Below, in pieces: positions 187 to 21,287 of a stretch of 64,000 bases of DNA. Under the pieces are notes generated by a model. That model saw nothing but the letters and a program-made list of their open reading frames with translations. It did not search any database and had not been told where the DNA came from. Source of the DNA: Thermodesulfovibrionia bacterium (lineage in GTDB: Bacteria > Nitrospirota > Thermodesulfovibrionia > UBA6902); contig CAVOUK010000002.1 in assembly GCA_963699585.1 (NCBI GenBank), forward strand, positions 264,811 through 328,810, in the 5' to 3' direction. The position numbers and the translations under genes were made by a program. How positions within the stretch are numbered: position 1 is the stretch's first letter; each line of letters starts with the position of its first letter.

Positions 187-1379
187 ATGATTTTATTTTG
201 GATATTTGCAGGTATTACCTGTTAGGAATAATCGGATATCTGCTTCAAATAATTGCTGTGCGGTCATATACAGCCCCCCAACTCCGGGGAAGGCATACGC
301 CTTCCCCGATCTTTTTCGCCTGTTTCAATCCTTAAACCTCTCAAAGGTCTTGATGACGGTCTGTTCGACAATCTCGAAAGCTTCTGCAATCTCGATTATC
401 CTCAATACGAGATTATCTTTGCGCTTCAGAACCAGAATGATCCGGCCTATAAGGTGGTAAAAAAGATAAAAGAGAAATATCCTTCACATGACATAACAAT
501 TGTCGTTGAATATTGTGATGAGGGACTGAACCCCAAGGTCAACAATCTGATCCCTGCATACAAAAGGGCCAAATATGATCTTATATTGATCAGCGACAGT
601 AATGTCCGTGTGGAAAAAAATTATCTGACTGACATTTCACGGCACATGGATGATCGCACTGTGGGACTTGTCAGCAATATGATCAGGGGCGTAAGCGGTC
701 GGTCCCTCGGCGCGGTTATGGAAAATCTCCATCTGAACTCCTTTATCGTGGGAAGCGTCTGCCTTCTGGATAAGTATCTTAAGATGCCTTGTGTAGTGGG
801 CAAGTCAATGCTGATGAGAAAAAGCGATCTTGACGCTATAGGGGGTCTCATTGCTGTAAAGGATTTTCTTGCCGAAGACTACATCATCGGCGAAAGAATT
901 CACCGGCTCGGCAAGAGAGTGGTCCTTTCAAGCCATCTTATCAATAACGTCAATGAATACTGGAATCGGAAAAATTTCTAAACCGGCATACAAGATGGGG
1001 GAAGCTGAGATGGAAGATCGGCGGCGCAAAGTATGTATCTGAACTATTCGGCAATGCCGTATTTATGTCCTTCGTACCACTCTTTATACTGCCGTTTTCA
1101 AAAATGTGTTTATTTGGCTGCGACTGTAAGCTCCCTGAAAATAGTCGATGATTTCTACATGGGTAAAATGATGAAAGCTGATATGCATCCTGCCTGTATT
1201 TGCTTGTTCCGCTGAAGGACCTTATTATCGGCTTTGTATGGTTTGTGCCGATCCTCAGCGATACCGTCTCATGGAGAGGCAACAGATATATTATCGGCAA
1301 AGATTCATTGCTCTCACCATATCCTGAGACAGGTCTGCGGCTGTGGAAGCCTGGGGATCGTAACAGCTATCAGGACTAA
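187..1379 (+). pseudogene. GT2 glycosyltransferase, ceramide-glucosyltransferase/HpnI-like, reading frame broken about 5 times
   Basis: AGGAGG sits 5 nt before ATG 187 (MILFWIFAGI, a TM helix). The core ORF 253-981 has PVSILKPLKGLD...QYEIIFALQ...SDSNV GT2 motifs. The continuation RHTRWGKLRW... and the C-terminus PLKDLIIGFVWFVPILSDTVSWRGNRYIIG lie in other frames. Frame changes are near 220, 275, 960, 1110 and 1197. Confidence 0.6.
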
Positions 1380-1435: not shown

Positions 1436-1618
1436 GTGACACAAATAAGTTTATCCAATAATTATCATTGTCCTTTTATAGATGAGGGGAAAAATATTTG
1501 TTCGGCCTCATTGTCATCCATTATTGTCGGATCGCAAATCAGACGTACGCTCTGCTCCAGTGAGAATTATGACAATTGCCCGATTTTTCTGGCAAAGATA
1601 CTGAGAAGGGCAGGATAA
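1436..1618 (+). CDS. small 4-Cys protein, paralog of 2532-2738
   Basis: 60 aa with pattern C-x9-C-x17-C-x7-C (HCPFIDEGKNIC...LCSSENYDNCPIF). AAGGAGG at 1404-1410 precedes an out-of-frame ATG at 1417, so the true 5' end may be frameshifted. Confidence 0.5.
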   Translation: MTQISLSNNYHCPFIDEGKNICSASLSSIIVGSQIRRTLCSSENYDNCPIFLAKILRRAG

Positions 1619-1803: not shown

Positions 1804-2382
1804 ATGACCAATGAGCATGACATAGGCAAGACAGGCATTTCGGTAAGAGAAGGGGTAGTAAGTAGTTTAAAGGGCATTAATGTAATTGAGGCAGAAATAG
1901 TCAATCTTGTGAAGGACACGGTTTCCAGCACTCTTAAGGCGACAAACTCTGTGGCGAATGAAACCGTTAATGTTACAAAGGATGTTTTAAGGGGAGCCAT
2001 CCAGGCAACTGAAGAGGTAGGAACAGGCCTGATGACGAGCACAAAATACGTGGCGAAAGGGGTTATTCTTGGAGTCAATGAAGTCGGCGGAGATGTAATC
2101 ACAGCAGCCGTTCAGATTGCAAAGACCGCTGTACATGGTGCTTCAGAGGTTGGAGCCGATATTGCACTCGTGGCGAGGAGGGCTGCCGAGGGAGTAATAG
2201 AGGCAACCAGAGAGATAGGCGGCAATGCGGAAGAAACGGCAAAAGCGACGGTAACCGGTGCGATTGAGGCAGCTGGCGCCATCAGCAATACGGCTGTGAA
2301 AACCGTAAAAGAGATGCTCATAGGAGTGGCCGAAGGAGTTAAGGAAGTTGCAGGGACTGCCCTGCCGAAGTCAGGCGGTTAA
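1804..2382 (+). CDS. 22-residue-repeat protein (Ala/Gly/Val/Thr-rich, about 8 repeats), copy A
   Basis: AAAGGAG RBS. 192 aa. Repeats register as TKDVLRGAIQATEEVGTGLMTS / TKYVAKGVILGVNEVGGDVITA / AVQIAKTAVHGASEVGADIALV / ARRAAEGVIEATREIGGNAEET and so on. No signal peptide or TM segment. Clearly paralogous to 14049-14726. Confidence 0.8.
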   Translation: MTNEHDIGKTGISVREGVVSSLKGINVIEAEIVNLVKDTVSSTLKATNSVANETVNVTKDVLRGAIQATEEVGTGLMTSTKYVAKGVILGVNEVGGDVITAAVQIAKTAVHGASEVGADIALVARRAAEGVIEATREIGGNAEETAKATVTGAIEAAGAISNTAVKTVKEMLIGVAEGVKEVAGTALPKSGG

Positions 2383-2531: not shown

Positions 2532-2738
2532 ATGAAAACAAGAGACTATAGCATTTGTCCGCATCTCAAAGGCAGCACCGAGGGGAGCATATGCGGGGTC
2601 GTTAACAGTCTTATCAAGGATATGGAAGGCTTTACGGTCAAACTGTGCATGAGCAGGCGCCATGAGGCGTGTTCCATGTATAAACGGTCCTTACAGAACA
2701 TGATTGAGTGCGGCTGTTATTCGATCAGCATGCAGTAG
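2532..2738 (+). CDS. small 4-Cys protein, paralog of 1436-1618
   Basis: TAGGAGG RBS. C-x11-C-x17-C-x7-C ([14 protein letters not shown]...[13 protein letters not shown]), the same C-x17-C-x7-C spacing as the other copy. Confidence 0.6.
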
Positions 2739-3299: not shown

Positions 3300-3599
3300 A
3301 TGAAAACAGATACTGTTATGGCTGACAAAGCAAAAGTACAGTGTCCAGTCTGTTCTTCTGATGCATCATACAAATACGGCAGGATTAAGACAGGAAAGCA
3401 ACGTTACATGTGTCTTATGTGTAGCTCACAATTCACCCCCGACGGAAAGAAGTCGTTGGTTAAGGGAAAACCGGCATGTCCTGAATGCGGGAAACCGATG
3501 AATGTATATAAGCTGGAGGGCGACGTCATCAGGTTCAGATGTTCGGGATATCCGATATGCAAAACTTTTAAGAAATTTAAACTCAAGGAGGATGCATGA
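3300..3599 (+). CDS. double zinc-ribbon protein (IS1 InsA-like CxxC...CxxC followed by a topoisomerase-type C4 finger)
   Basis: CPVCSS...GKQRYMCLMCSSQF and CPECGKPMNVYKLEGDVIRFRCSGYPICKTF. The stop overlaps the next start (ATGA at 3596). Confidence 0.55.
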   Translation: MKTDTVMADKAKVQCPVCSSDASYKYGRIKTGKQRYMCLMCSSQFTPDGKKSLVKGKPACPECGKPMNVYKLEGDVIRFRCSGYPICKTFKKFKLKEDA

Positions 3600-3967
3600 G
3601 CTATTACTTGCATAATATTCCGGGAAGGCTCAGGGTAAAGAGCCCGCTTCTGAAAAGAAACGATGCTGCTGCAGACGAACTCAAGATGGCGCTCAGTGCG
3701 ATCCAGGGGATTGCCGCAGTTGACTTCAACCCGATGACAGGGAGTCTCCTGATCAACTATAACCACCGGACAACGAAACACGAGGATATAATCAGTCTGC
3801 TTGAGCGCAAAGGGTATTTTGACCGGAAGAAGGCTGTGTCGAACGATAGTTACTTTCATAATGCCGCAGAAAAGACAGGCCGTGTTATAGGTAAGGCAGC
3901 CCTTGGTATGGCTTTAGAAAAGGCATTTGAAGGCTCCGCGCTTTCACTCATCGGTCTGCTAATCTAA
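3596..3967 (+). CDS. HMA-like 'GRxRxK' small protein a, with hydrophobic C-terminus
   Basis: HNIPGRLRVKSPLLK...IQGIAAVDFNPMTGSLLINYN. There is no CxxC metal site. The C-terminus reads GKAALGMALEKAFEGSALSLIGLLI. Confidence 0.65.
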   Translation: MSYYLHNIPGRLRVKSPLLKRNDAAADELKMALSAIQGIAAVDFNPMTGSLLINYNHRTTKHEDIISLLERKGYFDRKKAVSNDSYFHNAAEKTGRVIGKAALGMALEKAFEGSALSLIGLLI

Positions 3968-4049: not shown

Positions 4050-4922
4050 TCATACCTTATGTGAGAGTTTGGCGTTGAACTCCGATGCATCTTCGTATAA
4101 TTCAACGTAGACGTCTGAAAAACCGAACTGGTCTCTCAGACGTTGTTTCATCGTCCTGATCTTTTCCCTGCCGTATACAGAGCCGTTCGTCCTTATCCTG
4201 ACAGCCATGATTATCCGTTCGGGGGATAGTCCCCATATATGCAAATCCTTGATTGTTTGAATGTCATGAAAGTGACCATTCAGATAGCGTTTGACTTCAT
4301 CGATATCGACCGCTCCAGGATTCCCCTCCATGAGTATGTGAACGCTCTCTTTGATAAGAAAATAGGTCGGATAGGCAGCCAGCAATCCTATGATCACTCC
4401 TGCGAGTGGATCGATGAAGTAAAGGTGAGTATATCTTATCATGAGAGATGAAATTATGACGCCCACAGAGCCAAGGGTGTCATTCAGTATTAGGAGCCGT
4501 GCCCCCTTGATATTCATATCCCCGGCGTGCTTATGAAGCCGTATTAATCCGAAAGCATTCACCATGAGCCCTATCAGAGCGATGAACAGGACCTTATCAG
4601 CCTCAAGAGCTTCAGGATGTATTATCTTATGGTATGCATCAATCAGGACATAGAAAAGCAGGAATCCGACGAGCATCCCGTTGAACAGGCCCGACAGGAC
4701 TTTCGCACGCTCATAACCAAAGGTCTTATCCTTGCTCGGGAGCCTTTGCGCAAGCCTCCCCACGTACAAGGCAATGAACTGTCCGGAAATATTGATAGCC
4801 ATAAACGATGCGTCTGTAACAAGGGCAAGGCTGCGGTAATAAAACCCGCCGAGGAGTTCTACGAAGAAGTAAATGATGGTGAAAAAAAGGACTATCTTCT
4901 GGTCATTATTGCTCATGATCAA
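4050..4922 (-). CDS. cation diffusion facilitator (CDF) family transporter with non-canonical transport-site residues
   Basis: 290 aa with six TM segments, ...FGYERAKVL..., DTLGSVGVI, and a C-terminal LHIWGLSPE domain. TM2 and TM5 site residues read F..N / L..D instead of H..D / H..D. Confidence 0.8.
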   Translation of the reverse strand: MIMSNNDQKIVLFFTIIYFFVELLGGFYYRSLALVTDASFMAINISGQFIALYVGRLAQRLPSKDKTFGYERAKVLSGLFNGMLVGFLLFYVLIDAYHKIIHPEALEADKVLFIALIGLMVNAFGLIRLHKHAGDMNIKGARLLILNDTLGSVGVIISSLMIRYTHLYFIDPLAGVIIGLLAAYPTYFLIKESVHILMEGNPGAVDIDEVKRYLNGHFHDIQTIKDLHIWGLSPERIIMAVRIRTNGSVYGREKIRTMKQRLRDQFGFSDVYVELYEDASEFNAKLSHKV

Positions 4923-5099: not shown

Positions 5100-5862
5100 T
5101 TATTTCCTGAACGCGTATTTCGGATTGGACGGGTCAAAGTCGGTATCGGTGAGGCCGGCGTTCAGTTGCAGGGACTCATATCCATATCTCTCAATAAGTC
5201 TGTCACTCCAGTCGAAGAGACTCACTTTAACGGGCAAATCGGTTTCAATATCAATATTTAATATTGACCGGTAACAGTAATACCCTTTTGCCACGGACGA
5301 AGGGAAGATGAATTCCACCTTTCTGGTCTTGCGGCCATATACCATTTCCTCGCCCCTGTCGATGACATCAATCTCTTTGTTTTTCATCCCGGTCCTGATT
5401 TCCCGTCCGATGAGTTGAACGAGGTGTTCAATGCCGGCCTCTGTTATCGGATGACGGCTTCCCTTCATGATCAGGGGGCCTGCCGGATCGAGATCCAGGT
5501 TTATCAGATCCTGCAAGTCCGCACTCGCGCACCTTCACAAGATTGTTATTGCCGCCGTCAACATAAATGGCCTCTCTTCCGTAAGAGGGTTCTTTGATCC
5601 ATTTCATGTAAACCTTAAAAGGTTTCATAAATTTCAGATAGATCGTTTCTTCTTCGTTGAGAGCTTCTCCTATTCTCTCCTGCTTATGGAAAATGGCCGC
5701 GTAACTATTCACTGAGGACAACGTCTGTTCCGCCCGCATGGTCCATTCTTCCGGGCTGAAATTTTCCTGTCCAAACACCCTGGAGCAGGTAATCAACAGG
5801 AACGCAAGATGTATAGAGCATTCCGTAGGTATACGACGTCTGTGCAAATCCATTTTTTTCAT
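5100..5862 (-). CDS. DUF1571-like (LolA-fold) secreted protein, frameshifted near 5520
   Basis: GGAGGA RBS before ATG 5862 (MKKMDLHRRR... signal-like). YLKFMKPFKVYMKWIKEPSYGREAIYVDGGNNNLVKV lies in ORF 5428-5895. The continuation is in ORF 5100-5516. Confidence 0.6.
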
Positions 5863-5891
5863 GTCAGTCCTCCGCGATGAACAACTATTGT

Positions 5892-5960
5892 CCACAGATT
5901 ACGCAGATTAAATAAAACAATCTAAAAAATCTGTGTTCATCTGTGTAATCTGTGGATGAA
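5892..5960. repeat. CCACAGATTAC...AATCTGTGGATGAA inverted-repeat element, copy 1
   Basis: Arms are CCACAGATTACGCAGAT (5892-5908) and ATCTGTGTAATCTGTGG (5940-5956). The right end AATCTGTGGATGAA is identical to 57942-57955. Confidence 0.7.
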
Positions 5961-7915: not shown

Positions 7916-8467
7916 CTATATTTGTATGAACTTTAATGCCGCGCCGATAAGTGCGGCCTGTTCTTTGCTCATCTCGCCCAAACTGTCACGACGTTCCGTC
8001 ATGCGCCGGAAGCGAGTGAAGTCTGTCGGCAAACCTTCGGTGTCCACAAGATAAGCAATTTTCTGGATGATCACCCTGATGTCTTCCGGATGTTTTATCC
8101 GGCCTTTTATCTTGGGGAAATATTTCATTCTCATCCGGCCTCTGGAGCTGTCGAATTCGATATCTGTCACCCGGTGCATCGCGAGAATAACGTAATCACC
8201 GAGCGATTGCCAGAAGATCTCATCGTGATATTTCCAGGACGGGAGGTAAAAGCGCAATAAGGCAGGCTGTTTTTTCCCGCTTGGCGAGATGCTCTTATAA
8301 AGAACGACGGGGAAATTATCTGCCTCTTGATCATCGATCTTTTCGAGCTTTTCAAATAAATTGATTCTTTGCTGCTTACGATAAAGTTTATCGATCTGAT
8401 CTAAAACGCCGCCCTGTCCAATGCCGTCCTGAACTTTCTTGAGTACCGTTGTTATGGTGTTTGTCAT
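7916..8467 (-). CDS. hypothetical protein (183 aa, no family recognised)
   Basis: Long ORF in the same orientation and closely spaced between corA and the GGDEF gene. I see no recognisable motifs. Confidence 0.5.
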   Translation of the reverse strand: MTNTITTVLKKVQDGIGQGGVLDQIDKLYRKQQRINLFEKLEKIDDQEADNFPVVLYKSISPSGKKQPALLRFYLPSWKYHDEIFWQSLGDYVILAMHRVTDIEFDSSRGRMRMKYFPKIKGRIKHPEDIRVIIQKIAYLVDTEGLPTDFTRFRRMTERRDSLGEMSKEQAALIGAALKFIQI

Positions 8468-8516: not shown

Positions 8517-9495
8517 CTATATCCAACTCAATCGCCTGAAAATAAAAAACATGCACAGCACCTGCAGTATCGAAGCGGCCATGATGACAATAAAGGTCGT
8601 ATAGGTACCGAGGAACATCCATGGGTTATCTACCCCGCCGGGCAAGATGAACATTCATACCGTAAAGGGTCCCTATAAGGGTCACGGGGATGGAGAAGGT
8701 AAACAGGAGCGTCAGGACGGTAAGTATCTTGTTGGTCCTGTCGGAGCTTATGATCACGTCTGTCTCCTTGTAGATATCGAGTGTTTCCCTGCATTCTTCA
8801 AGTGTGGTCCAGACCTTGTCTATGTAATCAGCAAGGTCGCTGAAATAGTCCCCCATGTCCTCACCGGTAAAACGCTTTATTTTTTTTTCAAGCTCATAGA
8901 TGACCCGCTTAAGCGGGAAAACCGTTCGTCTGAAATTGGCGATATTATGGCGCAGGCCCGTCACCTCTCTGACCGCGCTGACATGCTCATCAAAGACCGC
9001 TTCTTCAATATCTCCAATCGTGCTAAGTATCTTTGAAGCCATGACAAGCAGGTTCTCGGACAGACTGTAAATAATCTCATAAAGCAGACTTGCAGGCGAT
9101 GACAAACCGTCAGCAAGCTGAGTCTTCCCGTTCCGTGACGTATCAGGGCGGTTGCCTTTACAGTACAAATTAAAGAGATTTTGCAGCGGCTTCAGCTCTC
9201 CGTTATGCACGGTCACAAGAAAATCCTTTCCCACGAAGACCGAGAGCTGTGTGGGGATGGAATATTTCTTTTCCTTAACGTAACGGGGGAAATGCAGAAT
9301 GATGAAGAGATAGTCATGATATTCATCGATCTTCGGGATCTGGTTTTTTGAAAGACAATCCTCAAGATTGAGGTCATTGAATGGGTGGATCGTTTTCAGG
9401 GAATTTACAAGCTCGGTTTCAGGAGCATCTATATTGATCCAGGTGAAATGACCGGCGTCAACTCTGTATGTAGCAAGAAGCTCGCTTTTGATCAT
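8517..9495 (-). CDS. corA: CorA-family Mg2+/Co2+ channel, frameshifted near 8640
   Basis: ORF 8626-9495 ends ...TLIGTLYGMNV. The expected continuation LPGGVDNPWMFLGTYTTFIVIMAASILQVLCMFFIFRRLSWI* is in the -1 frame and ends at 8517. The start overlaps the metK-like stop (ATGA). Confidence 0.8.
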
Positions 9496-10700
9496 TGTGC
9501 ATCATCCCTGAGCTCCGCAGCCTTATCCGTCAGCTCCCAGGGTAGTCCTATATCCATTCTGCCCACGTGCCCATAGGCGCTGAGTTTTCTGTAGAATCCT
9601 CCCTTAATAGTAGATGGAAGGTATCTGAGGTTAAACCGTTTGAGAATCCCTGCGAGACGAAAATCAAAATGTCTCCCGATGAGTTCGGCGATCTTATCAT
9701 CCGGTATCCTGCCGGTGCCGAAGGTCTCGACCTGAATGCTGACCGGTCGTGCATGTCCTATCGAATAGCTGAGCTGAACCTCACATTCATGAGCAAGTCC
9801 GGCTGCTACTGCATTTTTGGCCGCATATCGCGCTGCGTATGCGCCTACCCGGTCGATCCTCACAGGGTCCTTTCCGCTGAGAGCGGCGCCGCTGTGGCGT
9901 GAATATTCTCCATAGGTGTCTATGGCGTTTTTTCGCCCGGTGAGTCCGGAATGGACAGAAGGCCCGCCGACGATGAAGGGACCGTCAGGATTAATGAAAA
10001 TCCCTGTCCTCTCATCAGGCCTTATTTCTTCATCCTGGAATGCCGGGGTGATTATGTTGTCAATAATGTCGTCCCGTAGCTGTTGAAGATCAGGCCCTCC
10101 TTTGGCAACCGGCTTAAGCTGGGATGCTATGACCGTAACGCTGTGGATCCTGCGCGGCCTGTTGTCCACATATTCAACACCGACCTGTGTCTTGCCGTCA
10201 GGCATGAGGTATGGGAGAATTTTCTGAATTCTCACCGACGACAGCTTTCTTGAAAGCTTATGCGCAAGCCATAACGGAAGCGGCATAAATGAGGCTGTCT
10301 GATTGCATGCATAACCGAAGAGCGTCACCTGGTTTCTGACCGGGATGCGCTCCATCTCCTCATCGGAGAGTTTCCGCTCGTCGAAATTACGCTCATTGTT
10401 CAGCGGTAGTTCTTTAAGGCTTGTAATGATGCTGCATGTCTTGCTGTTGAAATCCTTCTGATCGTATCCTATCTGGTTGATAACATTGCGCGCTACGTTT
10501 GAGAAGTCTACATATGCGGCTGATGAAAACCTGGCAGCGATAAAAAGTATGGCTGTCGAGACAGCGCATTCTGCTATGACCGATGAAAAAGGGTCCTGCT
10601 GGAGAAAATGATCGACGATCGCATCGCTGATCTGATCGCACAGCTTATCAGGATGCCCTTCTGTAACCGACTCTGAGGAAAAAATGAAGTCCTTTTTCAT
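9492..10700 (-). CDS. divergent S-adenosylmethionine synthetase (MetK)-like protein
   Basis: SESVTEGHPDKLCDQISD, LMPDGKTQV, GLTGRK, DTYG...SGKDP.RIDR and AYAARY are all present. GAGDQG, GGEI and GGP.GD.G are replaced (see finding). Confidence 0.8.
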   Translation of the reverse strand: MKKDFIFSSESVTEGHPDKLCDQISDAIVDHFLQQDPFSSVIAECAVSTAILFIAARFSSAAYVDFSNVARNVINQIGYDQKDFNSKTCSIITSLKELPLNNERNFDERKLSDEEMERIPVRNQVTLFGYACNQTASFMPLPLWLAHKLSRKLSSVRIQKILPYLMPDGKTQVGVEYVDNRPRRIHSVTVIASQLKPVAKGGPDLQQLRDDIIDNIITPAFQDEEIRPDERTGIFINPDGPFIVGGPSVHSGLTGRKNAIDTYGEYSRHSGAALSGKDPVRIDRVGAYAARYAAKNAVAAGLAHECEVQLSYSIGHARPVSIQVETFGTGRIPDDKIAELIGRHFDFRLAGILKRFNLRYLPSTIKGGFYRKLSAYGHVGRMDIGLPWELTDKAAELRDDAQ

Positions 10701-13482
10701 GCCACTGCCTCCTTTGCGCTTTCATGCTGACATTGTTGATGTTACCGGCTTCAGTGTCCTTGAGCAGCATCTTTTGCGGTCTCTTCGTGGCCTCGTTAAT
10801 AAGGAGAGGCGTTACTGCTGTGCCTCCGACCACAAGCCAGTCGGCAAGACCAAGAGGCGTGAGACCAAGCAGGTTTCGCAGGCCGGGCACAACCATTGCC
10901 AGTCCCTGTAATCCTGCAGAGCCTGCAAGCGCGGCGTCGAGATAACGGTTCGGCGGTAGGGGCGTACGCCGTTCGCCCTTACTTTGTCATATATGCTGTG
11001 CTTTTCAGAACGGCAGCTTAAGGCATGGAGTATCTGTCCGAAGGTTAGGCTCATAAATGCCATAGTGCCTGCCTGTGCTCCCATGCCATATCTCATGATC
11101 CCGTAGCCGTAGGCCCCCAATGAGCCTGCTGAGAGCATCGCTGACTTCAAAGGCGATCCGTTTGAAGTCATCCTTCCTGACAATCGGCTCATCAGGATTT
11201 CTCGGAGGCATGCTGAGCACATCAGGTTCAGGCGGTTCAAGCGCAAGCGCCAGTCCCGGCGCTATGTCCGAGATGAGGTTGATCCAGAGGAGCTGCATGG
11301 CAGTAAGGGGCTGTCCCATACCGGTTGATATGGCCCCGAACATGACCATGATCTCGCTCAGGTTCGTTGCAAGGAGAAAGTGGACCGATTTACGGATATT
11401 GTTATAGATCGTTCTTCCCTGACTGATTGCAATTATCATAGTCTCGAGGTTGTCGTCTTCGATAACGACATCCGCAACTTCACGTGCCACATCCGTGCCG
11501 GTGTGCCCCATCGCAATACCGATGTCAGCTGCCTTAAGCGCCGGCCCGTCATTGATCCCGTCCCCTGTCATTGCCACAACCCTTCCTGAGGACTGAAGCG
11601 ACTGGACGATCTGGAGCTTATTGGCAGGGCTAACGCGCGCAAATACATGCACCTTTTCAGCCAGCGCCTTCAAGACATCCGGATCGAGGCTGTTCAGGTG
11701 TGTTGAGTCGAGTATTTCGAGCTGCCCGTCTTTGCTGAGGTTCAGTTCTTTGCCGATGGAGTAAGCGGTCGGTCCCTGGTCTCCGGTGATCATGACTGTA
11801 TCAATTCCCGCAACATGATACATGCCTATAAGTTCCTTTACACCGTTTCTTACAGGGTCCATCATTCCGGAAAGACCGAGCCAGACAAAATGCATGGTAT
11901 CGAGTGAGTTATCAGAGGTATCCGGCGTGTCTGACAATTCATTCAATTCATCGGAATATGCATAGGCAAATCCAAGCACCCGTAAGGCTTCTCCGGCCAT
12001 ACGCTCATTTTCGATCTGTATTGCTTCCCTGCTTTCCGCCGTGAGAGGGAGTTTTTGACCGTCCTGCATGTGCCATATACAGATCGACAGGACATCCTCA
12101 GGACTGCCTTTTAAAGCGAATATGGCTGCCCTGCGGTCGTGTGAGGCATTAGGATTAATATCGTGAACAGTTAACATAATATTGCTGTTTTCAGACCTGT
12201 GTCGTATCGTCCTGAGAGGGAATTTGTTCCGGAGTTCAGGCACGTGAACACCCGTGCTTATCGCCACCTGAAGAAGGGCATTCTCGGTTGACGAGCCTCG
12301 GAGTAATAATTCTCCGTTTTCGCTGGAGACGTCGCTTTCATTGCAGAGACATGAAATATGAATGAGTTTCAGCAGTTCATCGCACTCATATGGGTTAATA
12401 TCAGAGGCATCGTTTCGGAATCTCCCTTCAGAGACCTTTAGCCTCTTCATCCCGACGAACATGGAGATAACAGTCATTTTGTTCAGGGTAATGGTCCCGG
12501 TCTTGTCAAGACAGATGGTCTGCACCGAACCGAGAGTTTCTACTGCGTCAAGGTGACGGATAAGTACGTTGTGTTTTCTCATGTTCCTGATGCCGAGCGC
12601 CAGTGTTGTGGTAGCTACCATCGGCAACCCCTCGGGTACTGCGGCAACAGCAAGAGCTATAGAGGTCTTCAGCATCTGGAGAAAGCCATAGCCTCTCAGC
12701 AGTCCTATCAGAAAGACGAGACCACACACGGCTCCGCTTATATAAACAAGCTGAGTGCCCATTTTGTCAAGCTGCCGTTCCATCGGTGTTTCAGGAGGAC
12801 GCGCGGTTCCTACGAGCGTCTGTATTTTGCCGATCTCCGTAAATTTACCGGTTGACGTTACAACTGCAAGTCCCTGTCCCCCGGTCACGAGCGTGCCCAT
12901 ATAGACCATATTCGTCCTGTCCGCAAGCGGGATATCACCTTCAGTAAGCGTCTGAGAGCTTTTTATGACCGGCATGCTCTCACCGGTAAGCGCTGATTCA
13001 TCAACGCTCAGATGATGAGATTCGATCAGCCGCGCGTCCGCTGCTATGTAACTTCCCGGTTTCAGGAGAAGAATATCACCGGGAACTATACTCTCGGCAG
13101 ATAAATTATTAAGCACTCCGTCTCTTATGCATAAAGCAGACGGCCTCACAAGATTTTTTAGAGAATGGATGGTCTTTTCCGCCTGTGTCTCCGTTGTATA
13201 GCCTATGACCCCGTTAATGACGACCACTCCGGCAATCACGACCGCATCGGCGATGCCTCCCGTTGCTATGGAGACTGCTGCCGCAACGCCAAGAAGGGCG
13301 ACAGGAAGGGATTTAAACTGGTCAAAAAAAATGCTGAGTCCGGAACGGGGGACGGATTCGGGGAGCAGATTTGGCCCGAATTTCTTTAATCGCTCAGACG
13401 CGGTGTTTCCTGAAAGCCCCGCTGCCGGCAGCACACCCGCAGAATCAAGCGCTTCACCGGCGCTTTTCAGATGCCATTGCAC
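10648..13482 (-). CDS. P2-type (SERCA/PacL-like, Ca2+-type) cation-transporting P-type ATPase, C-terminal part frameshifted twice
   Basis: LTGES, VPEGLP, ICLDKTGTIT, KGSPE, MMDPVR, MITGD and MTGDGINDGPALKAADIGIAMG are present. The C-terminal TM region continues in ORFs 10812-11246 and 10648-10896, with shifts near 11135 and near 10970. Confidence 0.85.
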
Positions 13483-13880
13483 CTGAGGCTGGTCTTCAGC
13501 ATGGATGACGCTCTTGCGGACCTGGCGACGGCTCTTATTGAGTTTCCTGTCTGGCTCAGTATGACTTCCTGCTGATCTAATGACCGATGTAGATCAGGCT
13601 GCCGGGTTTTTGTTGTGAGCGAGGTACTCTCGGGCGTATGATTATTGCCGTTATATTCTTTTACCGCGGCCTCAATGACCCTGCTTATTATTTCAGCGGT
13701 ATTGCCTGAGTTGAAATTGACAATAACGCTTCCGGTCAGGACATTTGCGGAAAAGCCTGTTATGCCAGGATGAAGACTCAGCGCCTCTTCAATTTTTATC
13801 CTGAGCGGATCTGTTCTGTAAAGCCCTTCAACTTTTAACCGTACCCGGCCTTTTACTGAATTGTGAACGGTATGAACCAC
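13467..13880 (-). CDS. HMA-like 'GRxRxK' small protein b (may originally be an N-terminal domain of the ATPase)
   Basis: VKGRVRLKVEGLYRTDPLRIKIEEALSLHPGITGFSANVLTGSVIVNFN. It overlaps the GTG start of the ATPase. The ATPase frame is open for another roughly 40 codons upstream. Confidence 0.65.
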   Translation of the reverse strand: MVHTVHNSVKGRVRLKVEGLYRTDPLRIKIEEALSLHPGITGFSANVLTGSVIVNFNSGNTAEIISRVIEAAVKEYNGNNHTPESTSLTTKTRQPDLHRSLDQQEVILSQTGNSIRAVARSARASSMLKTSLRCNGI

Positions 13881-14048: not shown

Positions 14049-14726
14049 TTAACCCCGTTTGCTACTTGTCTTGGTTTTAACCTCCACAGGGGCGGCCTTC
14101 TTTGTGGTTGCGGCTGTTTCAGTCCGTCGCGGTTTTGGGAGCGCAACGTTTGCAACATCCTTAACTCCCTCAACCACGCCTACAAGCATATCCCTGACAG
14201 ATTGTACTGCAGTGGTACCTATTGTGCCTGCTGCTTCCATAGCGCCGTTTACCGCCGATATCGCGACATCACCCGCATTGCCGCCGACTTCCTTGCTTGC
14301 TTCGATTACGCCGTCAACTGCCCTCCGAGCAACAAGGGCCACATCTGCGCCTATATCTGCGGCCCCCTTTACAGCGCCTTTTACTGTCTGACTGGAAACG
14401 GTAATTATGTCTCCTCCGACGTCACTTACGCCCATGACTATTCCCTTTGCAACGCTTTTGGTGCTCAGGATGAGCCCTGTGCCAACTTCTTCAGTTGCCT
14501 GAATAGCGCCCTTTACAACATCTCTTGTGATGTTGACGCTCTCTGTTGCTACCTCACCCGTTGCGCGGAGCGCATTGGATACAGTGCTCCGAACAAGCGT
14601 TACGATCTCAGCCTCGATCTCATTGATCCCTTTAAGGCTGCTGATGACGCCGTCTTTGACAGTGGAACCAGCCCTGCCGATACCTTCCTGAAAACCCTCT
14701 CCGCTCATCACTTGCTCATTCGTCAT
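14049..14726 (-). CDS. 22-residue-repeat protein, copy B (with Lys/Thr-rich C-terminal tail)
   Basis: GGAGG RBS. 225 aa. Same repeat register as copy A (TRDVVKGAIQATEEVGTGLILS / TKSVAKGIVMGVSDVGGDIITV / ...). Roughly 60% identical to copy A by eye. Confidence 0.8.
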   Translation of the reverse strand: MTNEQVMSGEGFQEGIGRAGSTVKDGVISSLKGINEIEAEIVTLVRSTVSNALRATGEVATESVNITRDVVKGAIQATEEVGTGLILSTKSVAKGIVMGVSDVGGDIITVSSQTVKGAVKGAADIGADVALVARRAVDGVIEASKEVGGNAGDVAISAVNGAMEAAGTIGTTAVQSVRDMLVGVVEGVKDVANVALPKPRRTETAATTKKAAPVEVKTKTSSKRG

Positions 14727-14846: not shown

Positions 14847-15326
14847 TCATTCCGGCTGCTTATTGTCAGAATTCGATTTAAGGAAAATATTAAGGGCATA
14901 CCATCCGGCTGCGTACCAGGGGATTGCAGCGACATTCCCCCTCCATACCTGGTATATGCCTGCACCAATGAGCGCAAGAACCGCAGCCCCGCCGACATCC
15001 AGTTCGTTCCCTGTAATATCACGTATGGCGACGTTTGCTTCCTTGAATGCATCGTTGACCCTCCGGTGGAGATGTGTACGGGTGTACCGGGGGCCTGCAA
15101 ATGTTAGAAGCTTATTTGTTTTTATCGTTTCAACAATGCTGACGGGATCATGTGAATGATGGATCAATATGCTGCCCGTAAGCTCGCTGATCTCAACTTT
15201 ATTTACTCCTTCAATGCCGGATATCTCATTTAAAAGAAGAGTAAGAAAGTTTATGTCCTTTCTTTTTGAAGGGACCTTGATCCTGATTCGTGAACCTGTT
15301 TGATGGCTGACAAAGGCAACCGGCAT
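14847..15326 (-). CDS. HMA-like 'GRxRxK' small protein c, with C-terminal transmembrane region
   Basis: MPVAFVSHQTGSRIRIKVPSKRKD...EISELTGSILIHH. The C-terminus DVGGAAVLALIGAGIYQVW...IPWYAAGWYALNIFL suggests two TM segments. The ATG lies 1 nt after the upstream stop. Confidence 0.65.
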   Translation of the reverse strand: MPVAFVSHQTGSRIRIKVPSKRKDINFLTLLLNEISGIEGVNKVEISELTGSILIHHSHDPVSIVETIKTNKLLTFAGPRYTRTHLHRRVNDAFKEANVAIRDITGNELDVGGAAVLALIGAGIYQVWRGNVAAIPWYAAGWYALNIFLKSNSDNKQPE

Positions 15327-15327
15327 G

Positions 15328-15618
15328 TCATGCCCCCGCTTCTCCCTCAGGAGCTGGGGCATGCGCAGTTTCGTTATGCGCTTCAGCCATTTCAGCTTTG
15401 GCCTCCGCGACGACATCTTCAGCGACTTCACTCAGCTCAGCAAAAGTCTCTTTCCCCTTCTCATAAAGTACAAGACCGCCCTTGATGGCTGATTTGAGCA
15501 GAGGCTTTGCCACTCCTGCCAGTGCAGGGAGCACTACCGGAGCTAATATCGCACCGCCGATACCGATTGCGAGACCTGTCAACAAATTGCCTTTTAAACC
15601 ATTATCGAATAATCCCAT
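15328..15618 (-). CDS. DUF5132-like small membrane protein
   Basis: GGAGG RBS before ATG 15618. MGLFDNGLKGNLLTGLAIGIGGAILAPVVLPALAGVAKPLLKSAIKGGLVLYEKGKETFAELSEVAEDVVAEAKAEM matches my recollection of the DUF5132 pattern. Confidence 0.5.
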   Translation of the reverse strand: MGLFDNGLKGNLLTGLAIGIGGAILAPVVLPALAGVAKPLLKSAIKGGLVLYEKGKETFAELSEVAEDVVAEAKAEMAEAHNETAHAPAPEGEAGA

Positions 15619-15798
15619 AACGCCTCCAATTGTTCTTGTGTATTGATAGCATGAGTTTAACACCGTCAAAACAGCGTGTCCATGGGATCTTTCATTACCT
15701 GCCTACTTTTCACTGAAATGTAATACTACTGTTATAACGGTGTAACAATAAACTTGCTAACGTATTGATAACGCACAAATATCAGGAGGTGGATAATT

Positions 15799-16063
15799 AT
15801 GATTTTTTACACCGTCAAACATCACATACGTGGAAGAATTAGAGTACAAATACCTCTGATTAAAACGATGACTCTGACAGAACTGAAAGCCCTGGCGGAG
15901 AAAATATTTGCTGAACGACCGGCCTGAAGGCATAAAATACATCAGGGCAAACCCGCTGACCGGCAGCGTCACCATAACGTATGATCCGTCCACGATAGAT
16001 ATTAAAGCATATATAAGAGACCTGGCATCGAGCGAAGAAATACAGCGTCTCACTCTGCAGTAG
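15799..16063 (+). CDS. HMA-like 'GRxRxK' small protein d, frameshifted near 15920
   Basis: AGGAGG RBS. MIFYTVKHHIRGRIRVQIPLIK...AEKIFAE, then a +1 frame gives PEGIKYIRANPLTGSVTITYDPSTIDIKAYIRDL...*. It is not in the ORF track because both halves are under 60 aa. Confidence 0.55.
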
Positions 16064-16997: not shown

Positions 16998-18009
16998 ATG
17001 AAAACGATTTTGAAATTAACATTGATTGCTTTATTGATTTTGTCATTTGCGCAAGTGCATGCGGCCGAGATGTTAAACGGCGCAGGAGCGACGTTTCCCT
17101 ATCCCGTGTACTCTGCATGGGCTTTTGACTATAACAAAGTGACAGGAGTGCAGTTAAATTATCAGTCCATCGGCTCTGGAGGCGGGGTAAAACAGATTTC
17201 TGCACGCACCGTTGATTTTGGGGCATCCGATGCTCCAATGACATCGGAAGAGCTTCAGAAGGACAGTTTATTGCAGTTCCCGGCGGTAATCGGAGGAGTG
17301 GTCCCGGTTGCGACATCTCGAAAACGTTGCGCCAGGACAGCTCAAGCTTGATTCCGATACGCTCTGCAAGATATTTCTGGGCGACATCAAATCCTGGGAT
17401 GATCCTCAGATAACTGCGATGAACAAAGGGCTCTCTCTGCCTAAAGGTGATATAGTTGTCGTGTATCGCTCTGATGGTTCGGGGACAACCGCTATATTTA
17501 CAGATTACCTCAGCAGTGTCTGTCCTGCGTGGAAAGAGAAGGTCGGAGCCGGGAAAGCAGTGAAGTTCCCGGTCGGCATCGGCGGCAAGGGAAATGAAGG
17601 CGTGGCAAATTACGTCAAACAGTCAGCCAACTCGATCGGGTATGTTGAGTTCGCCTATGCAAAACAGAACAATCTTGATTTTACTCAGCTCAAGAATGCT
17701 GCGGGCCAATTTATTACTCCGAGCTTCGAGAGTTTTGAGGATGCTGCTGCGACAGGTGATTTCGACCCCAAGAAGGATTTTTATCTTTGGCTGAATAACA
17801 CCCCCGGCAAAAATTCCTGGCCGATTGCCGGCGCAACATTCATCCTCCTTGCAAAGGAAAAGACCGATTCCAACAAGAACGTGGTCAAATTCTTCGACTG
17901 GGCTTTCAAAAACGGTGACAGTAAAGCGAAAGAACTGATTTATGTCCCGTTGCCGAATTCTCTGAAAGAGAAGATCAGGACATACTGGAAAGCAAATGGC
18001 ATTCAGTAG
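16998..18009 (+). CDS. pstS: phosphate ABC transporter substrate-binding protein PstS, frameshifted near 17310
   Basis: Signal peptide plus [16 protein letters not shown]...SIGSGGG in ORF 16998-17351. The rest (GQLKLD...YRSDGSGTT...) is in ORF 17308-18009. Confidence 0.85.
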
Positions 18010-18020
18010 ACAATAGTTTC

Positions 18021-18058
18021 AGAGAGGGGCAGGTCTGGTGCCTGCCTCTCTTTTTTTT
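18021..18058 (+). terminator. intrinsic terminator/attenuator between pstS and pstC
   Basis: AGAGAGGGGCAGG-tctggtg-CCTGCCTCTCT followed by T8. Confidence 0.8.
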
Positions 18059-18080
18059 CAGTCATGAAAGGTTATTCCAA

Positions 18081-19022
18081 GTGCCGACAACTACAAAAAA
18101 AAATTATGTTGATACAATATTTTCGTTTATTACCGCGGTTTCTTCTATTTCCGTCATCATACTGATCATCGGGATTATTTATGTTCTTATTTCTGAGTCT
18201 TCTCTTGCAATAGGGAAATTCGGTATCTGGGGCTTTCTTACATCAACAGATTGGAACCCGGTCAGGGAATCGTTTGGGGCGCTCACGAATATATACGGGA
18301 CGATTCTTACGACTTTCCTTTCTTTAATGTTTGCCATACCCGTTGCCATAGGGATTGCGATATTTGTCACAGAAATAGCGCCGAATTTTTTAAAAGGGCC
18401 TGTCGGAGCCGCCATTGAACTTCTCGCTGCGATCCCGAGCATTATTTACGGCATGTGGGGGCTCTTCACCCTTACGCCGATAATGAGCAGACATATAGAA
18501 CCGTTTCTCAAAACGATATTTGCGGATGTTCCGTTTGTAGGCATCCTTTTTCAGGGGACGCCTATGGGAATAGATATCCTGACGGCAAGTGTCATCCTCA
18601 GCATAATGATCATCCCCTTTACCGCAAGCATATCCAGAGATGCTTTTAATCTCACTCCTGCTGTAGTGAAGGAATCAGCGTACTCAATTGGGGCCACAAA
18701 ATGGGAGGTCGTCAAGGATGTCGTTATTCCTTATTCAAAGCTCGGTGTGTTTGGTGGAATAATCCTCTCCCTCGGAAGGGCCCTCGGAGAGACTATGGCT
18801 GTGGCATTTGTCCTGGGAAACAACCACAGGATAACAACTTCTCTCTTCGATGCGGCTGCAACGATTACAGTCACCCTCGCCAACGAGTTTGCGGAGGCGG
18901 ACAAGGACATCTATCTTTCATCACTGTTCTATCTCGCGCTTGTTCTGTTTGTGATGAGTTTTATCACTCTTGCAATAGCGAAATTCTTTCTCCTCAAGGC
19001 AGAGAGGAAATATTCACGATGA
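18081..19022 (+). CDS. pstC: phosphate ABC transporter permease PstC
   Basis: 313 aa polytopic permease with the EAA-like region LGRALGETMAV. pst operon context. Confidence 0.9.
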   Translation: MPTTTKKNYVDTIFSFITAVSSISVIILIIGIIYVLISESSLAIGKFGIWGFLTSTDWNPVRESFGALTNIYGTILTTFLSLMFAIPVAIGIAIFVTEIAPNFLKGPVGAAIELLAAIPSIIYGMWGLFTLTPIMSRHIEPFLKTIFADVPFVGILFQGTPMGIDILTASVILSIMIIPFTASISRDAFNLTPAVVKESAYSIGATKWEVVKDVVIPYSKLGVFGGIILSLGRALGETMAVAFVLGNNHRITTSLFDAAATITVTLANEFAEADKDIYLSSLFYLALVLFVMSFITLAIAKFFLLKAERKYSR

Positions 19023-19858
19023 CAAGAGAGCGGCAGAGGAAAATAGGAGGATTTATCGCCCTTTCTTTCAGCACGTTCGCAGCATTTCTGGGACTTTTCT
19101 CGCTCGTATTCATACTCGGCGACGTGCTCATACACGGGATAAAGGCGTTGAATCTGAGTCTCTTTACCAATGATCCCGCGCCTCTGGGGGTTACGGGAGG
19201 GGGGCTGAGGCATGCCTTTGTCGGCCAGTTGATGATAACAGCATGTGCAACATTGATTGGCGTGCCTGTCGGTGTGCTCGGAGGCACTTTCCTTGCAGAA
19301 TATGCGAGGGGAACAAGGATAGCGCGGCTTATCAGCATCCTCTCGGATATCATGGTCAGTGTCCCCTCCATCGTAATAGGTACTTTTGTATATGCGGTAC
19401 TTGTCACGCCGCTCGGTCATTTTAGCGGCTGGGCAGGAGCAGTTGCGCTTTCGATCATTATGATCCCGGTAGTGCTCAGGACTACGGAAGACATGCTTTC
19501 TCTTGTCCCCTGGACCTTGAGAGAGGCTGCATTCGCGCTCGGCGCCCCATATTATAAAGTCATTACTCAGGTGGTCTACCGTGGAGCTGCCACCGGAATA
19601 CTGACCGGCATTTTGCTTTCGATAGCAAGAGTAGCCGGAGAGACCGCTCCACTACTGTTTACTTCATTCAACAATTCCTTTTTCTCTATGGATATGCAGA
19701 ATCCGGTTGCTTCGTTAACCGTCACCATATTCCAATACGCAATGGGGCCTTATGATATCTGGCATGAACAGGCCTGGGCTGCATCGTTTGTGATCACGAT
19801 ATTCATACTGGTCCTTACAATAGCTGGAAGACTCATTATCAAATGGAGGTACAAATAG
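19019..19858 (+). CDS. pstA: phosphate ABC transporter permease PstA
   Basis: ATG 19019 overlaps the pstC stop (ATGA). [11 protein letters not shown]...[15 protein letters not shown]. The upstream part of ORF 18701-19858 is read-through inside pstC. Confidence 0.9.
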
Positions 19859-20622
19859 TGGCGAACAGTATTGAACTTGAGGTCAAAGGCCTTGACTTCC
19901 ATTATTCGGGAAATGTTCATGCCCTCAAAAAGATAAATCTGCCTGTTCACAAAAACATGGTCACGTCATTAATTGGACCGTCAGGCTGCGGAAAGACCAC
20001 CCTGCTCAGGTGTTTCAACAGAATGCATGACCTTTATCCAGGGAATAGTTACAATGGGGAGATACTTTTTCAGGGCGGGAATATACTCTCAAAAGGCACA
20101 GACCTCATCAACCTGAGAAGCAGGATCGGAATGGTCTTCCAGAAACCGACGCCCTTCCCCATGAGCATATTTGACAATATCGCTTACGGATTGAAACTGA
20201 ACGGCGTCAGCAAGAGGTCCGACATTTCCGAACAGGTTGAACGGGCGCTTGTGCATTCAGTGCTTTGGGATGAAGTGAAGGACAAACTTAATACAAGCGC
20301 GTATGAGCTTTCCGGCGGGCAGCAGCAGCGACTTGTCATTGCGAGGGCACTGGCGGTGGACCCGCAGGTGCTGCTTTTTGACGAGCCGACGTCCGCCCTT
20401 GATCCCATATCTACGGCCAAGATAGAAGAGCTTACCGCGATACTGAAGAAGGATGTCACTATTGTTATCGTGACTCACAATATGCAGCAGGCTGCGCGGA
20501 TATCCGACTGGACCGGATTCATGATGCTCGGTGAGTTAATTGAATTCGACATGACTCAAAAAATATTCACCGCACCTTCGGAAAAACTGACCGAAGACTA
20601 TGTCACGGGGAGGTTTGGATAA
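19843..20622 (+). CDS. pstB: phosphate ABC transporter ATP-binding protein PstB
   Basis: [29 protein letters not shown]. Confidence 0.95.
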
Positions 20623-21287
20623 TGAGTGTTTTCGATGAAGAATTGCAACAATTAAAAGACAAGATCCTGAAAATGGGCGCTTTGGTAGAGGATGCTATCA
20701 AGAGTTCCATACATGCCCTTGTGGAAAGGGACAATACGTTAGCCGGCAGAGTGATCGAGAATGACCGTGTTATAAATACACTTGATGTGGAGATCGACGA
20801 AGATTCCATCCGGCTCATAGCCTTGAAACAGCCGATGGCGATTGACCTCCGGTTTATCACAACTGCAATGAAGATAACCACTGATCTTGAAAGAATGGGA
20901 GACCTTGCCGTCAACATCGCGGAACGGGCGCTGGAGCTGAACGAGGAACCTGTTTTGAAGCCTTACATAGATATCCCCAAAATGAGAGAAATCGCCCAGG
21001 GGATGACACGGGATGCACTCGATGCCTTTGTAAGAAAAGACAAGAAGCTTGCAACAGACGTGATCATGAGAGACGATGAGGTGGACGACCTCAAACATGA
21101 AGTCTTAAAGGAACTGGCTTTTTTCATGGCCCAGGACCCTGCCACAGTTTCGAGGGCTATGAAGGTCAGTTTTGTGGCGCAGTACCTTGAACGTATCGCC
21201 GACCATGCAACCAATATAGCGGAGATGGTGATTTACCTTGTTGAAGGAAAGATAATCAGGCATACTGTTCCGCCTGCCGGGAAGTGA
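20622..21287 (+). CDS. phoU: phosphate uptake regulator PhoU
   Basis: Two PhoU repeats (DLERMGDLAVNIAE / YLERIADHATNIAE). ATGA overlap with pstB. Confidence 0.9.
   Translation: MSVFDEELQQLKDKILKMGALVEDAIKSSIHALVERDNTLAGRVIENDRVINTLDVEIDEDSIRLIALKQPMAIDLRFITTAMKITTDLERMGDLAVNIAERALELNEEPVLKPYIDIPKMREIAQGMTRDALDAFVRKDKKLATDVIMRDDEVDDLKHEVLKELAFFMAQDPATVSRAMKVSFVAQYLERIADHATNIAEMVIYLVEGKIIRHTVPPAGK

Follow-up and report, generated by a model that had tools for sequence, protein, structure and literature searches.

What are the two repetitive proteins encoded in a 64,000-nucleotide stretch of a Thermodesulfovibrionia genome (assembly GCA_963699585.1, contig CAVOUK010000002.1, positions 264,811 to 328,810; hereafter the window), and what is one of them doing among the genes of a cation-transport operon? 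An initial annotation, made from the letters alone, had singled out two open reading frames (ORFs), here called A and B, as paralogues built of 22-residue units; it assigned them to no known family and thought that they could coat or scaffold a membrane or granule surface. The analyses reported here give a more specific answer: judged by sequence comparison, A and B are paralogues of a conserved, previously undescribed family of helical proteins made of eight 22-residue repeats.

Two paralogous genes of eight repeats

Both ORFs are present as described, and the early estimate of their likeness was accurate: BLASTP aligns them with 120 identities over 199 positions (60%, E 2e-80) and a single N-terminal gap. 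In the 22-residue register each consists of eight in-phase units with zero indels. The unit length originally proposed therefore stands, while the division into six clean and two degenerate units does not, the first two units differing from the rest only by a missing Gly turn. Autocorrelation (BLOSUM62 scores against 500 shuffles) gives z = 10.1 for A and 11.1 for B at a lag of 22 residues, 6.5 and 7.2 at a lag of 44, and 4.3 and 4.6 at a lag of 11.

Several other features recorded by the initial annotation hold on closer inspection. Both proteins are rich in Val, Ala, Gly and Thr, with aromatics, Pro and Cys nearly absent (in A a single Tyr and a single Pro are present, and Cys, Trp and Phe are missing altogether); neither has a signal peptide or a transmembrane segment, the highest 19-residue Kyte-Doolittle mean being 1.37. 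Both genes have strong Shine-Dalgarno sequences (AAGGAG for A, AGGAGG for B), and B ends in a Lys/Thr-rich tail, PRRTETAATTKKAAPVEVKTKTSSKRG, with a net charge of +6. The net charge of A is -5 and that of B is -1.

Divergence between the two genes is concentrated at third codon positions (0.20, 0.19 and 0.65 at positions 1, 2 and 3), with 76 codons showing synonymous changes only and 63 showing nonsynonymous ones. Because of this concentration A and B are taken to be real, selected genes and not low-complexity ORFs: the codon pattern marks both as genuine coding genes under purifying selection. The long ORFs opposite them on the other strand are by-products. Scans for promoters and terminators returned site counts little above shuffled expectation. 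The closest relative of A among the homologues fetched is 72% identical to it (B is 60% identical), and B has a 92% identical ortholog at locus L047, in the Thermodesulfovibrionia metagenome-assembled genome DeMMO3_26, on the strength of which the window is assigned to this lineage.

A conserved family outside the databases

The failure to recognise a family is borne out by every collection searched: neither Pfam nor NCBIfam yielded a match above threshold for A or B, a PADLOC scan gave no match, and a profile search of all PDB sequences reached E 0.13 at best, with alpha-synuclein at E 0.89. Literature searches by sequence motif and domain name found no paper describing the repeat family. Below threshold, Pfam offered Senescence (E 0.017), Tape_meas_lam_C (E 0.14) and Phasin_2 (E 0.17), and PHROGs offered weak tape-measure matches only (E 7.5e-4 to 5.6e-3, 15-18 bits); these weak matches are compositional. 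The Perilipin, Apolipoprotein, Synuclein and LEA families gave no Pfam match at E <= 1.

Relatives are nonetheless numerous. An exhaustive profile search covering 1.84 billion cluster representatives returned 699 proteins at E <= 1e-3, of which 324 reach E <= 1e-10 and 76 reach E <= 1e-30, and a scan of one genome per GTDB species located 239 loci with a repeat gene. Taxonomic labels and gene neighbourhoods were taken from the best 80 of these 239 loci. Around 59 of the 80 are labelled Nitrospirota/Thermodesulfovibrionales; other labels are Geobacteraceae, Syntrophorhabdaceae and other Desulfobacterota, three anammox Brocadiales, one Binatia and one Acidoferrales (Acidobacteriota). Several genomes hold three or four copies. 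A word-indexed protein search, run also with a profile of 19 sequences, recovered no more than about 10 members, and the exact sequences of A and B are absent from a 15-billion-protein collection, though the MetK and DUF5132 proteins of the same contig are present in it. The family seems to be under-called or under-indexed in protein databases.

Among 73 close homologues the repeat region is practically gap-free, and conservation is specific to the unit, all eight keeping a distinct sequence of their own; pooled, the unit reads [A/V/T]-K-x-[T/V/A]-V-x-G-[A/V]-[I/V/L]-x-[G/A]-x-x-E-[V/I]-G-x-[D/E/N]-h-h-x-h. An acidic residue, Glu or Asp, fills position 14 in 76% of units; at position 18, 61% have Asp, Glu or Asn. 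A set of 64 divergent members shares 30-63% identity with A; among these, internal indels are few and short, and the Gly positions are the most conserved (1.59 bits, against 2.02 bits for the apolar face and 2.57 bits for the polar face). Many members of the family carry basic, low-complexity tails at the N- or C-terminus.

An operon with a cation pump and CoBaHMA proteins

For the neighbourhood comparison the proteins of the window were matched against six-frame ORFs of the 80 loci, and fractions refer to loci with enough flank. B belongs to an operon on the minus strand with the order DUF5132, HMA_2 hairpin protein, repeat protein B, HMA_2-ATPase, MetK and CorA (Table 1). The fixed order from DUF5132 through the CoBaHMA hairpin, repeat and ATPase genes to MetK recurs in about 80% of sufficiently flanked loci: in 56 of 68 loci the HMA_2 hairpin gene immediately precedes the repeat gene, and in 57 of 68 DUF5132 lies upstream; a P-type ATPase gene is directly downstream in 57 of 73, and MetK follows the ATPase in 49 of 62, including those of Brocadiales, Binatia and Acidoferrales. 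This synteny is kept in Nitrospirota, Desulfobacterota, Brocadiales, Binatia and Acidoferrales, and stop and start codons often overlap. At L081 independent gene calls and precomputed Pfam matches give the identical gene order. The initial annotation had looked to similar transporter genes beside homologues elsewhere, and the ATPase position supplies them; the conserved operon of CoBaHMA, DUF5132, Ca2+-ATPase and MetK genes had escaped it.

In the window the ATPase gene is broken into three ORFs (13467-13880, 11005-13482 and 10812-11246). By tblastn, one frameshift lies near 13640, and a further two, which compensate each other, fall in the interval from about 11240 to 10990. Other genes are split into overlapping ORFs as well (5100-5895, 15799-16063, 16998-18009 and 18081-19858), and the frameshifts look more like long-read indel error than gene decay, although either may be the cause. 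An intact ortholog at L004, 1041 aa long, has an N-terminal HMA_2 domain, and its best PDB matches are SPCA1 (5e-146), Listeria LMCA1 (8e-137) and SERCA (2e-120). Because of these matches, together with the motifs of the window copy, PEGLP in M4 (read as VPEGLP) and LWINLISD in M6 (carrying the Asn/Asp of Ca site II), the ATPase of the operon is assigned, by homology and motif, to the P2A-type pumps for Ca2+ and possibly Mn2+.

The Pfam family HMA_2 corresponds to the CoBaHMA domain (bioRxiv 10.1101/2024.07.07.602159). PF19991 matches proteins of the window at E 1.8e-15, 2.9e-8 and 3.5e-14, and the HMA_2 motifs read HNIPGRLRVK, HNSVKGRVRLK, HQTGSRIRIK and HHIRGRIRVQ. All the HMA_2 proteins of the window bear the CoBaHMA signature, H-x3-4-(G)R-h-R-h-K without CxxC; the domain is defined as HMA-like, having a His in strand beta0 and basic residues conserved in beta1/beta2 but no CxxC metal site.

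Table 1. Repeat genes, operon genes and neighbouring features in the window
Feature	Position	Strand	Remarks
Small four-Cys protein just upstream of A	1436..1618	+	Clusters with ORFs of 14 loci
Repeat protein A	1804..2382	+	192 aa; eight 22-residue units, residues 14-189; divergent solo paralogue
Second small four-Cys protein just downstream of A	2532..2738	+	Clusters with ORFs of 14 loci
Zn-ribbon protein (3300-3599) and small CoBaHMA protein (3596-3967)	3300..3967	+	Zn_ribbon families; HMA_2 E 1.8e-15
CDF transporter	4050..4922	-	Cation_efflux E 1.3e-39, ZT_dimer; 10/80 loci
CorA-like divalent-cation channel, last operon gene in this lineage	8626..9495	-	Pfam CorA, E 2.3e-47
MetK, full-length S-adenosylmethionine synthetase	9492..10700	-	Overlaps start of next gene
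CoBaHMA-fused ATPase, predicted P2A-type Ca2+/Mn2+ pump	10780..13880	-	Pfam E1-E2_ATPase, Cation_ATPase_N/C, HMA_2
Repeat protein B	14049..14726	-	225 aa; eight units, residues 23-198, plus basic Lys/Thr tail; canonical operon member
CoBaHMA (HMA_2) protein, C-terminal membrane hairpin	14847..15431	-	PF19991, E 3.5e-14, profile positions 10-141 of 154
DUF5132 protein, first operon gene	15328..15669	-	PF17195, E 5e-13
Fourth small CoBaHMA-like gene, frameshift-split	15799..16063	+	Divergent from operon, towards pstS
pstS-pstC-pstA-pstB-phoU	16998..21287	+	Divergent from operon; several ORFs split; ORF translations

The remaining operon genes can be described briefly. The DUF5132 protein has an N-terminal hydrophobic helix followed by a soluble helix; its true start is likely MGLFDNG, at about 15618, and the resulting 96-aa form has a 100% identical entry in the protein collection. 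The HMA_2 hairpin protein carries the motif H-x4-R-I-R-I-K and likely starts with MPVAF at 15326, overlapping the DUF5132 stop. The MetK ortholog at L004 has all three S-AdoMet_synt domains in Pfam, and no methyltransferase that would explain MetK was found within the operon. CorA follows MetK in 6 loci, and about 10 others have a CDF transporter there instead.

The gap between B and the ATPase gene is 168 nt long in the window, against 7-50 nt between repeat gene and ATPase in most other loci, and contains a perfect 13-bp inverted repeat at 13957-13987 (TTTATCCTTCACC ... GGTGAAGGATAAA). The inverted repeat may act as an attenuator within the operon, holding the repeat protein above the level of the pump. 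Two further gene types recur around the operon: a DUF3562 protein of 81-86 aa after the MetK or CDF gene in 19 loci (e.g., L045, L048, L050, L064, L066, L075 and L081), and EAL or GGDEF-EAL proteins within 10 kb in 25 loci.

Helicity and predicted fold

The initial annotation had suggested a search for periodicity at 3.67 residues per turn. Over all 176 residues of the repeat region, hydrophobicity has a power spectrum dominated by a single peak; it lies at 98 degrees per residue, equal to 3.67 residues per turn, and its power is 24-26 in both paralogues, compared with 6-8 for the next peak. The prediction of helicity is likewise upheld, both AlphaFold2 models being all-helical. For A (8 sequences) the model is compact, with eight helices of 18-22 residues joined by 3-4-residue turns at the Gly positions (pLDDT 76.9, pTM 0.74); the small-xxx-small positions 7 and 11 of the unit fall within the helices. 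For B (11 sequences) the model has four helices of about 44 residues (pLDDT 46.8, pTM 0.27).

Foldseek comparison of model A with the PDB returned designed helical repeat proteins only, the best being DHR4 (5cwb; TM-score 0.78, root-mean-square deviation 2.9 A over 197 columns, 20% identity); against BFVD there was no match. As far as modelling goes, helicity and the coherent 3.67-residue periodicity are robust and the tertiary fold is not. We do not rely on a compact solenoid as the settled fold, the AlphaFold2 run on B having given another topology at low confidence. The behaviour of the two models would be compatible with a switch between a bundle and extended helices; their disagreement would likewise agree with, though it is no evidence for, the coil-to-helix or bundle-opening transition of proteins that bind reversibly to lipid, membrane or granule surfaces.

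A proposed scaffold for a cation-pump module

What, then, might the repeat protein do? Our preferred reading, which is tentative, is that it could be a cytoplasmic, reversibly surface-binding scaffold of a cation-pump membrane module. It would be the soluble and abundant subunit of a membrane-associated assembly handling cations, whose other subunits would be the single-pass DUF5132 protein, the CoBaHMA/HMA_2 membrane-hairpin protein and the CoBaHMA-fused P2A Ca2+/Mn2+ ATPase. In solution it would be a bundle or repeat of helices. It would dock reversibly on the cytoplasmic face of a membrane patch or compartment bearing the operon partners, by its in-phase 11/3 apolar face and, in many members, by basic tails as well; the docked protein would serve as scaffold or coat and so organise or regulate the pumping of Ca2+/Mn2+, in a role positionally analogous to that of calcyanin in cyanobacteria. 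Exchangeable apolipoproteins and perilipins work by reversible surface docking of this kind. The localisation, binding partners and physiological role of the repeat protein, including any part as a granule or membrane coat, are what we infer from these properties.

Fusion proteins bear on the partners of the repeat. In P0023 an HMA_2-hairpin protein is fused to the repeat domain, its N-terminal part matching the HMA_2 hairpin protein of the window at E 1e-9. In P0001 and P0160 the repeat domain is followed by a C-terminal ROS/MucR DNA-binding domain (E 4.8e-24 in P0001) and replaces the N-terminal region of MucR; the gene for P0160 adjoins a DUF5132 gene. P0083 combines an N-terminal receiver-like domain with the repeat, and P0031 contains a DUF2934 domain. 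A further candidate, P0012, in which the repeat seemed to be joined to the ATPase N-terminus, is a frameshift read-through and counts only for gene adjacency. The arrangement of domains in these fusions suggests a self-associating or partner-binding module coupled, physically or functionally, to CoBaHMA and DUF5132 proteins.

A number of points weigh against the scaffold. The mean hydrophobic moments of individual helices are moderate only (0.27-0.56), and the AlphaFold2 models of A and B disagree on tertiary arrangement. About 20% of copies, A among them, are solo; the hosts of the best 80 loci are all metagenome-assembled genomes of uncultured organisms; and P0023 is a lone example that could be a read-through gene call. 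Identities of 60-72% across phyla, a fixed repeat number and the conservation of each repeat would be fitted at least equally well by a specific protein-protein adaptor.

That adaptor is the first alternative. The repeat protein would here be a rigid, globular alpha-solenoid that never spreads on a surface, but serves as a stoichiometric regulatory subunit binding the DUF5132 and HMA_2 proteins, the ATPase through its CoBaHMA domain, or both. The eight helices and Gly turns of model A and its superposition on DHR4 speak for such a protein, as do the fixed number of repeats, the rarity of internal indels, the individually conserved repeats and the intra-helix small-xxx-small positions, which are what tight helix packing would need. 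Yet the model of B is of low confidence and different in topology, and matches to idealised designed repeats alone carry little information. Moreover, the strong Shine-Dalgarno sequences, a separate upstream region and several paralogues per genome suggest an abundance above the need for a regulatory subunit, and basic disordered tails are common in the family. On balance we consider the adaptor somewhat unlikely.

A second alternative takes the likeness to calcyanin further. CoBaHMA was first described in calcyanin, a marker of intracellular amorphous CaCO3 formation in cyanobacteria (PMC8890360; bioRxiv 10.1101/2024.07.07.602159). In Microcystis the neighbours of the calcyanin gene, ccyA, are two DUF5132 genes, a CoBaHMA gene, a gene combining CoBaHMA with a helical hairpin (DUF454-like) and a Ca2+/H+ exchanger gene, several of which are co-expressed with ccyA (bioRxiv 10.1101/2024.07.07.602159); in the literature searched DUF5132 is mentioned only by this Microcystis study. 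By analogy, the operon may specify a so far unrecognised system, widespread in anaerobic Nitrospirota, Desulfobacterota and anammox bacteria, for sequestering cations in an intracellular compartment or forming a mineral inclusion: it would build or service an intracellular inclusion or compartment of Ca or Mn carbonate or phosphate, and the repeat protein, as a convergent and non-homologous counterpart of calcyanin, would bind cations or template or stabilise the mineral or its envelope by means of its regular Glu-x-Gly-x-Asp/Asn turns.

The partner set, which equals the ccyA neighbourhood (DUF5132, CoBaHMA, CoBaHMA-hairpin and Ca transporter), is consistent with such a system, and so are the architecture of P0023, analogous to that of W-type calcyanin, the acidic position 14 and the Asp, Glu or Asn of position 18, and the phosphate-uptake genes that adjoin the operon, at L081 among other loci. 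In addition, magnetotactic Thermodesulfovibrionales form intracellular Ca carbonates, by genetics that are unknown (PMC12710302). Against it, the repeats are far more polar than those of calcyanin, have a 22-residue period and lack Gly-Pro; inclusions have not been reported for the host lineages found here; plain Ca2+ efflux is equally consistent with a P2A pump; and the net charges of A and B are far from those of typical acidic mineral-binding proteins. Homology to calcyanin is ruled out: hhalign of the family alignment against five Methylococcaceae calcyanins (taken from Table S2 of bioRxiv 10.64898/2025.12.07.689555) gives a probability of 0.4% and E 0.16. We regard a mineral or compartment system of this kind as improbable.

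The ROS/MucR fusions and the receiver fusion, together with Lys/Ala/Pro-rich tails in B and other members, could instead point to a nucleoid-associated or transcription-regulatory protein, in which the repeat would serve for oligomerisation or sensing and the basic tails would bind DNA. However, a DNA-binding domain is absent from both A and B, and A lacks a basic tail as well; repeat genes mostly lie in a membrane-transport operon; and in the fusions it is the MucR part that supplies DNA binding, the MucR fusion itself lying beside DUF5132. A role on DNA is accordingly very unlikely. Finally, the notion that A and B are spurious ORFs in repetitive Ala/Gly/Val-coding DNA, or a fragment resembling a phage tape measure, draws on the weak PHROG and Tape_meas_lam_C matches and has practically no chance of being right: it is refuted by the codon-position divergence, the Shine-Dalgarno sites on both genes, hundreds of conserved homologues with fixed synteny and a chromosomal housekeeping context free of phage genes.

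One arrangement involving the MucR fusion deserves separate mention. At L082 (9079-13746) and L083 a MucR-fused repeat gene, a DUF5132 gene and a gene for a 183-aa membrane protein lie between two identical 242-aa genes, which are 3939 nt apart, and the MucR fusion is found on six more contigs of 2-5 kb. A small circular element could explain the arrangement, or else a tandem duplication.

The surrounding island and phosphate genes

A is a solo copy, yet lies within the same 16-kb island as the operon. It sits between two small four-Cys genes, upstream of a low-molecular-weight phosphatase gene, the Zn-ribbon/HMA_2 pair and the CDF transporter gene. The two four-Cys proteins have no Pfam match and share the pattern C-P-x7-11-C ... 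C-x7-8-C. The Zn-ribbon protein has matches of InsA, IS1595 and topoisomerase type, and its ORF overlaps the start of the small CoBaHMA gene; Zn-ribbon genes are found in 44 of the 80 loci, mostly with an HMA_2 gene as neighbour and in convergent orientation to the main operon. A 183-aa protein without a Pfam match, encoded at 7916-8467 in the window, recurs near the island in 5 loci (L008, L020, L030, L031 and L034).

On the other side of the operon, the translation of 15799-16063 (MIFYTVKHHIRGRIRVQIP...LTGSVTITYDPS) carries the CoBaHMA motif, and equivalent small HMA_2 genes lie upstream in many loci. Pst/PhoU genes adjoin the operon in about 24 of the 80 loci, mostly in divergent orientation, and the adjoining pstSCAB-phoU genes are often led by a small CoBaHMA gene and a Cys-rich gene of about 68 aa. 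The neighbours at L081 are PHO4, PhoU_div, a PhoBR-like pair, Porin_O_P (a phosphate porin) and PstSCA. In about a dozen Nitrospirota loci MetK is followed by genes for Acetyltransf_5 (an OlsB-like N-acyltransferase) and a PlsC-type acyltransferase (L005, L017, L018, L020, L023, L026, L029, L040, L043 and L079); a GT21 glycosyltransferase gene closes the island in these loci and is also present at the start of the window (253-981). The company of OlsB-like, PlsC and GT21 genes suggests synthesis of phosphorus-free lipids, and the Pst/PhoU and lipid-gene neighbours hint at a possible phosphate-stress island. The rest of the window is ordinary chromosome (DnaG, UvrD, GlmS, IF-2), with no phage genes.

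Significance

The repeat family is common in environmentally important anaerobes: sulfate and iron reducers and anammox bacteria. Its linkage to CoBaHMA, DUF5132 and a putative Ca2+/Mn2+ pump provides a comparative data set that is independent of the work on cyanobacterial calcification and much larger, and that bears on a question left open by that work, namely the role of CoBaHMA, DUF5132 and Gly-rich helical partners. If the module scaffolds a cation-storage compartment, genetically controlled Ca handling or biomineralisation would extend to new phyla; if the compartment or mineral reading were true, the operon would offer the first genetic handle on intracellular carbonate formation beyond cyanobacteria and Methylococcaceae, for example in Thermodesulfovibrionales. 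Should the repeat protein only regulate the pump, bacterial P2A ATPases would still gain an accessory subunit of a new type.

Comparison with known systems

DHR4 is the nearest structural likeness: model A superposes on it, and the helix-turn units are of similar length. The likeness to DHR4 and to natural alpha-solenoids is structural only and was not reproduced for B, and no natural solenoid family was matched.

Phasins are small, helical, amphipathic and abundant proteins of granule surfaces. The repeat protein resembles them in being small, helical and amphipathic, and has the weak match to Phasin_2 (PF09361) noted above. Membership was rejected: the match scores 12.6 bits against a cut-off of 24.9, and no polyhydroxyalkanoate synthase or depolymerase genes occur among the conserved neighbours.

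The initial annotation had compared the proteins with amphipathic-helix proteins of 11- and 22-residue period, and here the comparison is partly sustained. With apolipoproteins, perilipins, alpha-synuclein and LEA_4 proteins the family shares an exact 11n periodicity with coherent 11/3 phase over about 176 residues, a weakly hydrophobic Ala/Val/Thr/Gly face flanked by Lys and Glu, and the absence of transmembrane segments and signal peptides. Unlike them, it belongs to none of their Pfam families, is bacterial and operon-linked to a cation pump, and has a conserved Gly turn every 22 residues. Moreover, LEA, perilipin and apolipoprotein arrays are loosely constrained and variable, whereas the repeats described here are fixed at eight, with rare indels and per-repeat conservation. 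The 3.67-residue periodicity upholds the comparison; the fixed number and individual conservation of the repeats, and the lack of a family match, do not.

Calcyanin offers the closest parallel in context. Its three GlyZip motifs, each some 50 residues long, have Gly at every fourth position and Gly-Pro in the middle, and the protein is mostly apolar (PMC8890360); the family described here has eight amphipathic 22-residue units with 3.67 periodicity and no Pro. The transporter is a P2A ATPase in place of the CAX antiporter beside Microcystis ccyA, and the hosts are anaerobic Nitrospirota, Desulfobacterota and Brocadiales, whereas calcyanin is found in cyanobacteria and Methylococcaceae with intracellular amorphous CaCO3, its presence being correlated with such inclusions. 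Because the hhalign probability is so low and the repeats are of a different kind, the family stands outside the calcyanin family; by these comparisons the relation is one of context and general design, not of family membership. Within those bounds the parallel is extensive. Both are Gly/Ala/Val-rich, aromatic-poor helical repeat proteins without other known relatives, and the genes around both encode DUF5132, a Ca2+ transporter and CoBaHMA/HMA_2 proteins, one of which has a membrane hairpin. W-type calcyanin consists of CoBaHMA and a Gly-rich helical-hairpin repeat (PMC8890360), an architecture paralleled by the CoBaHMA-repeat fusion of P0023. Among these partner genes, the repeat protein occupies the place of calcyanin.

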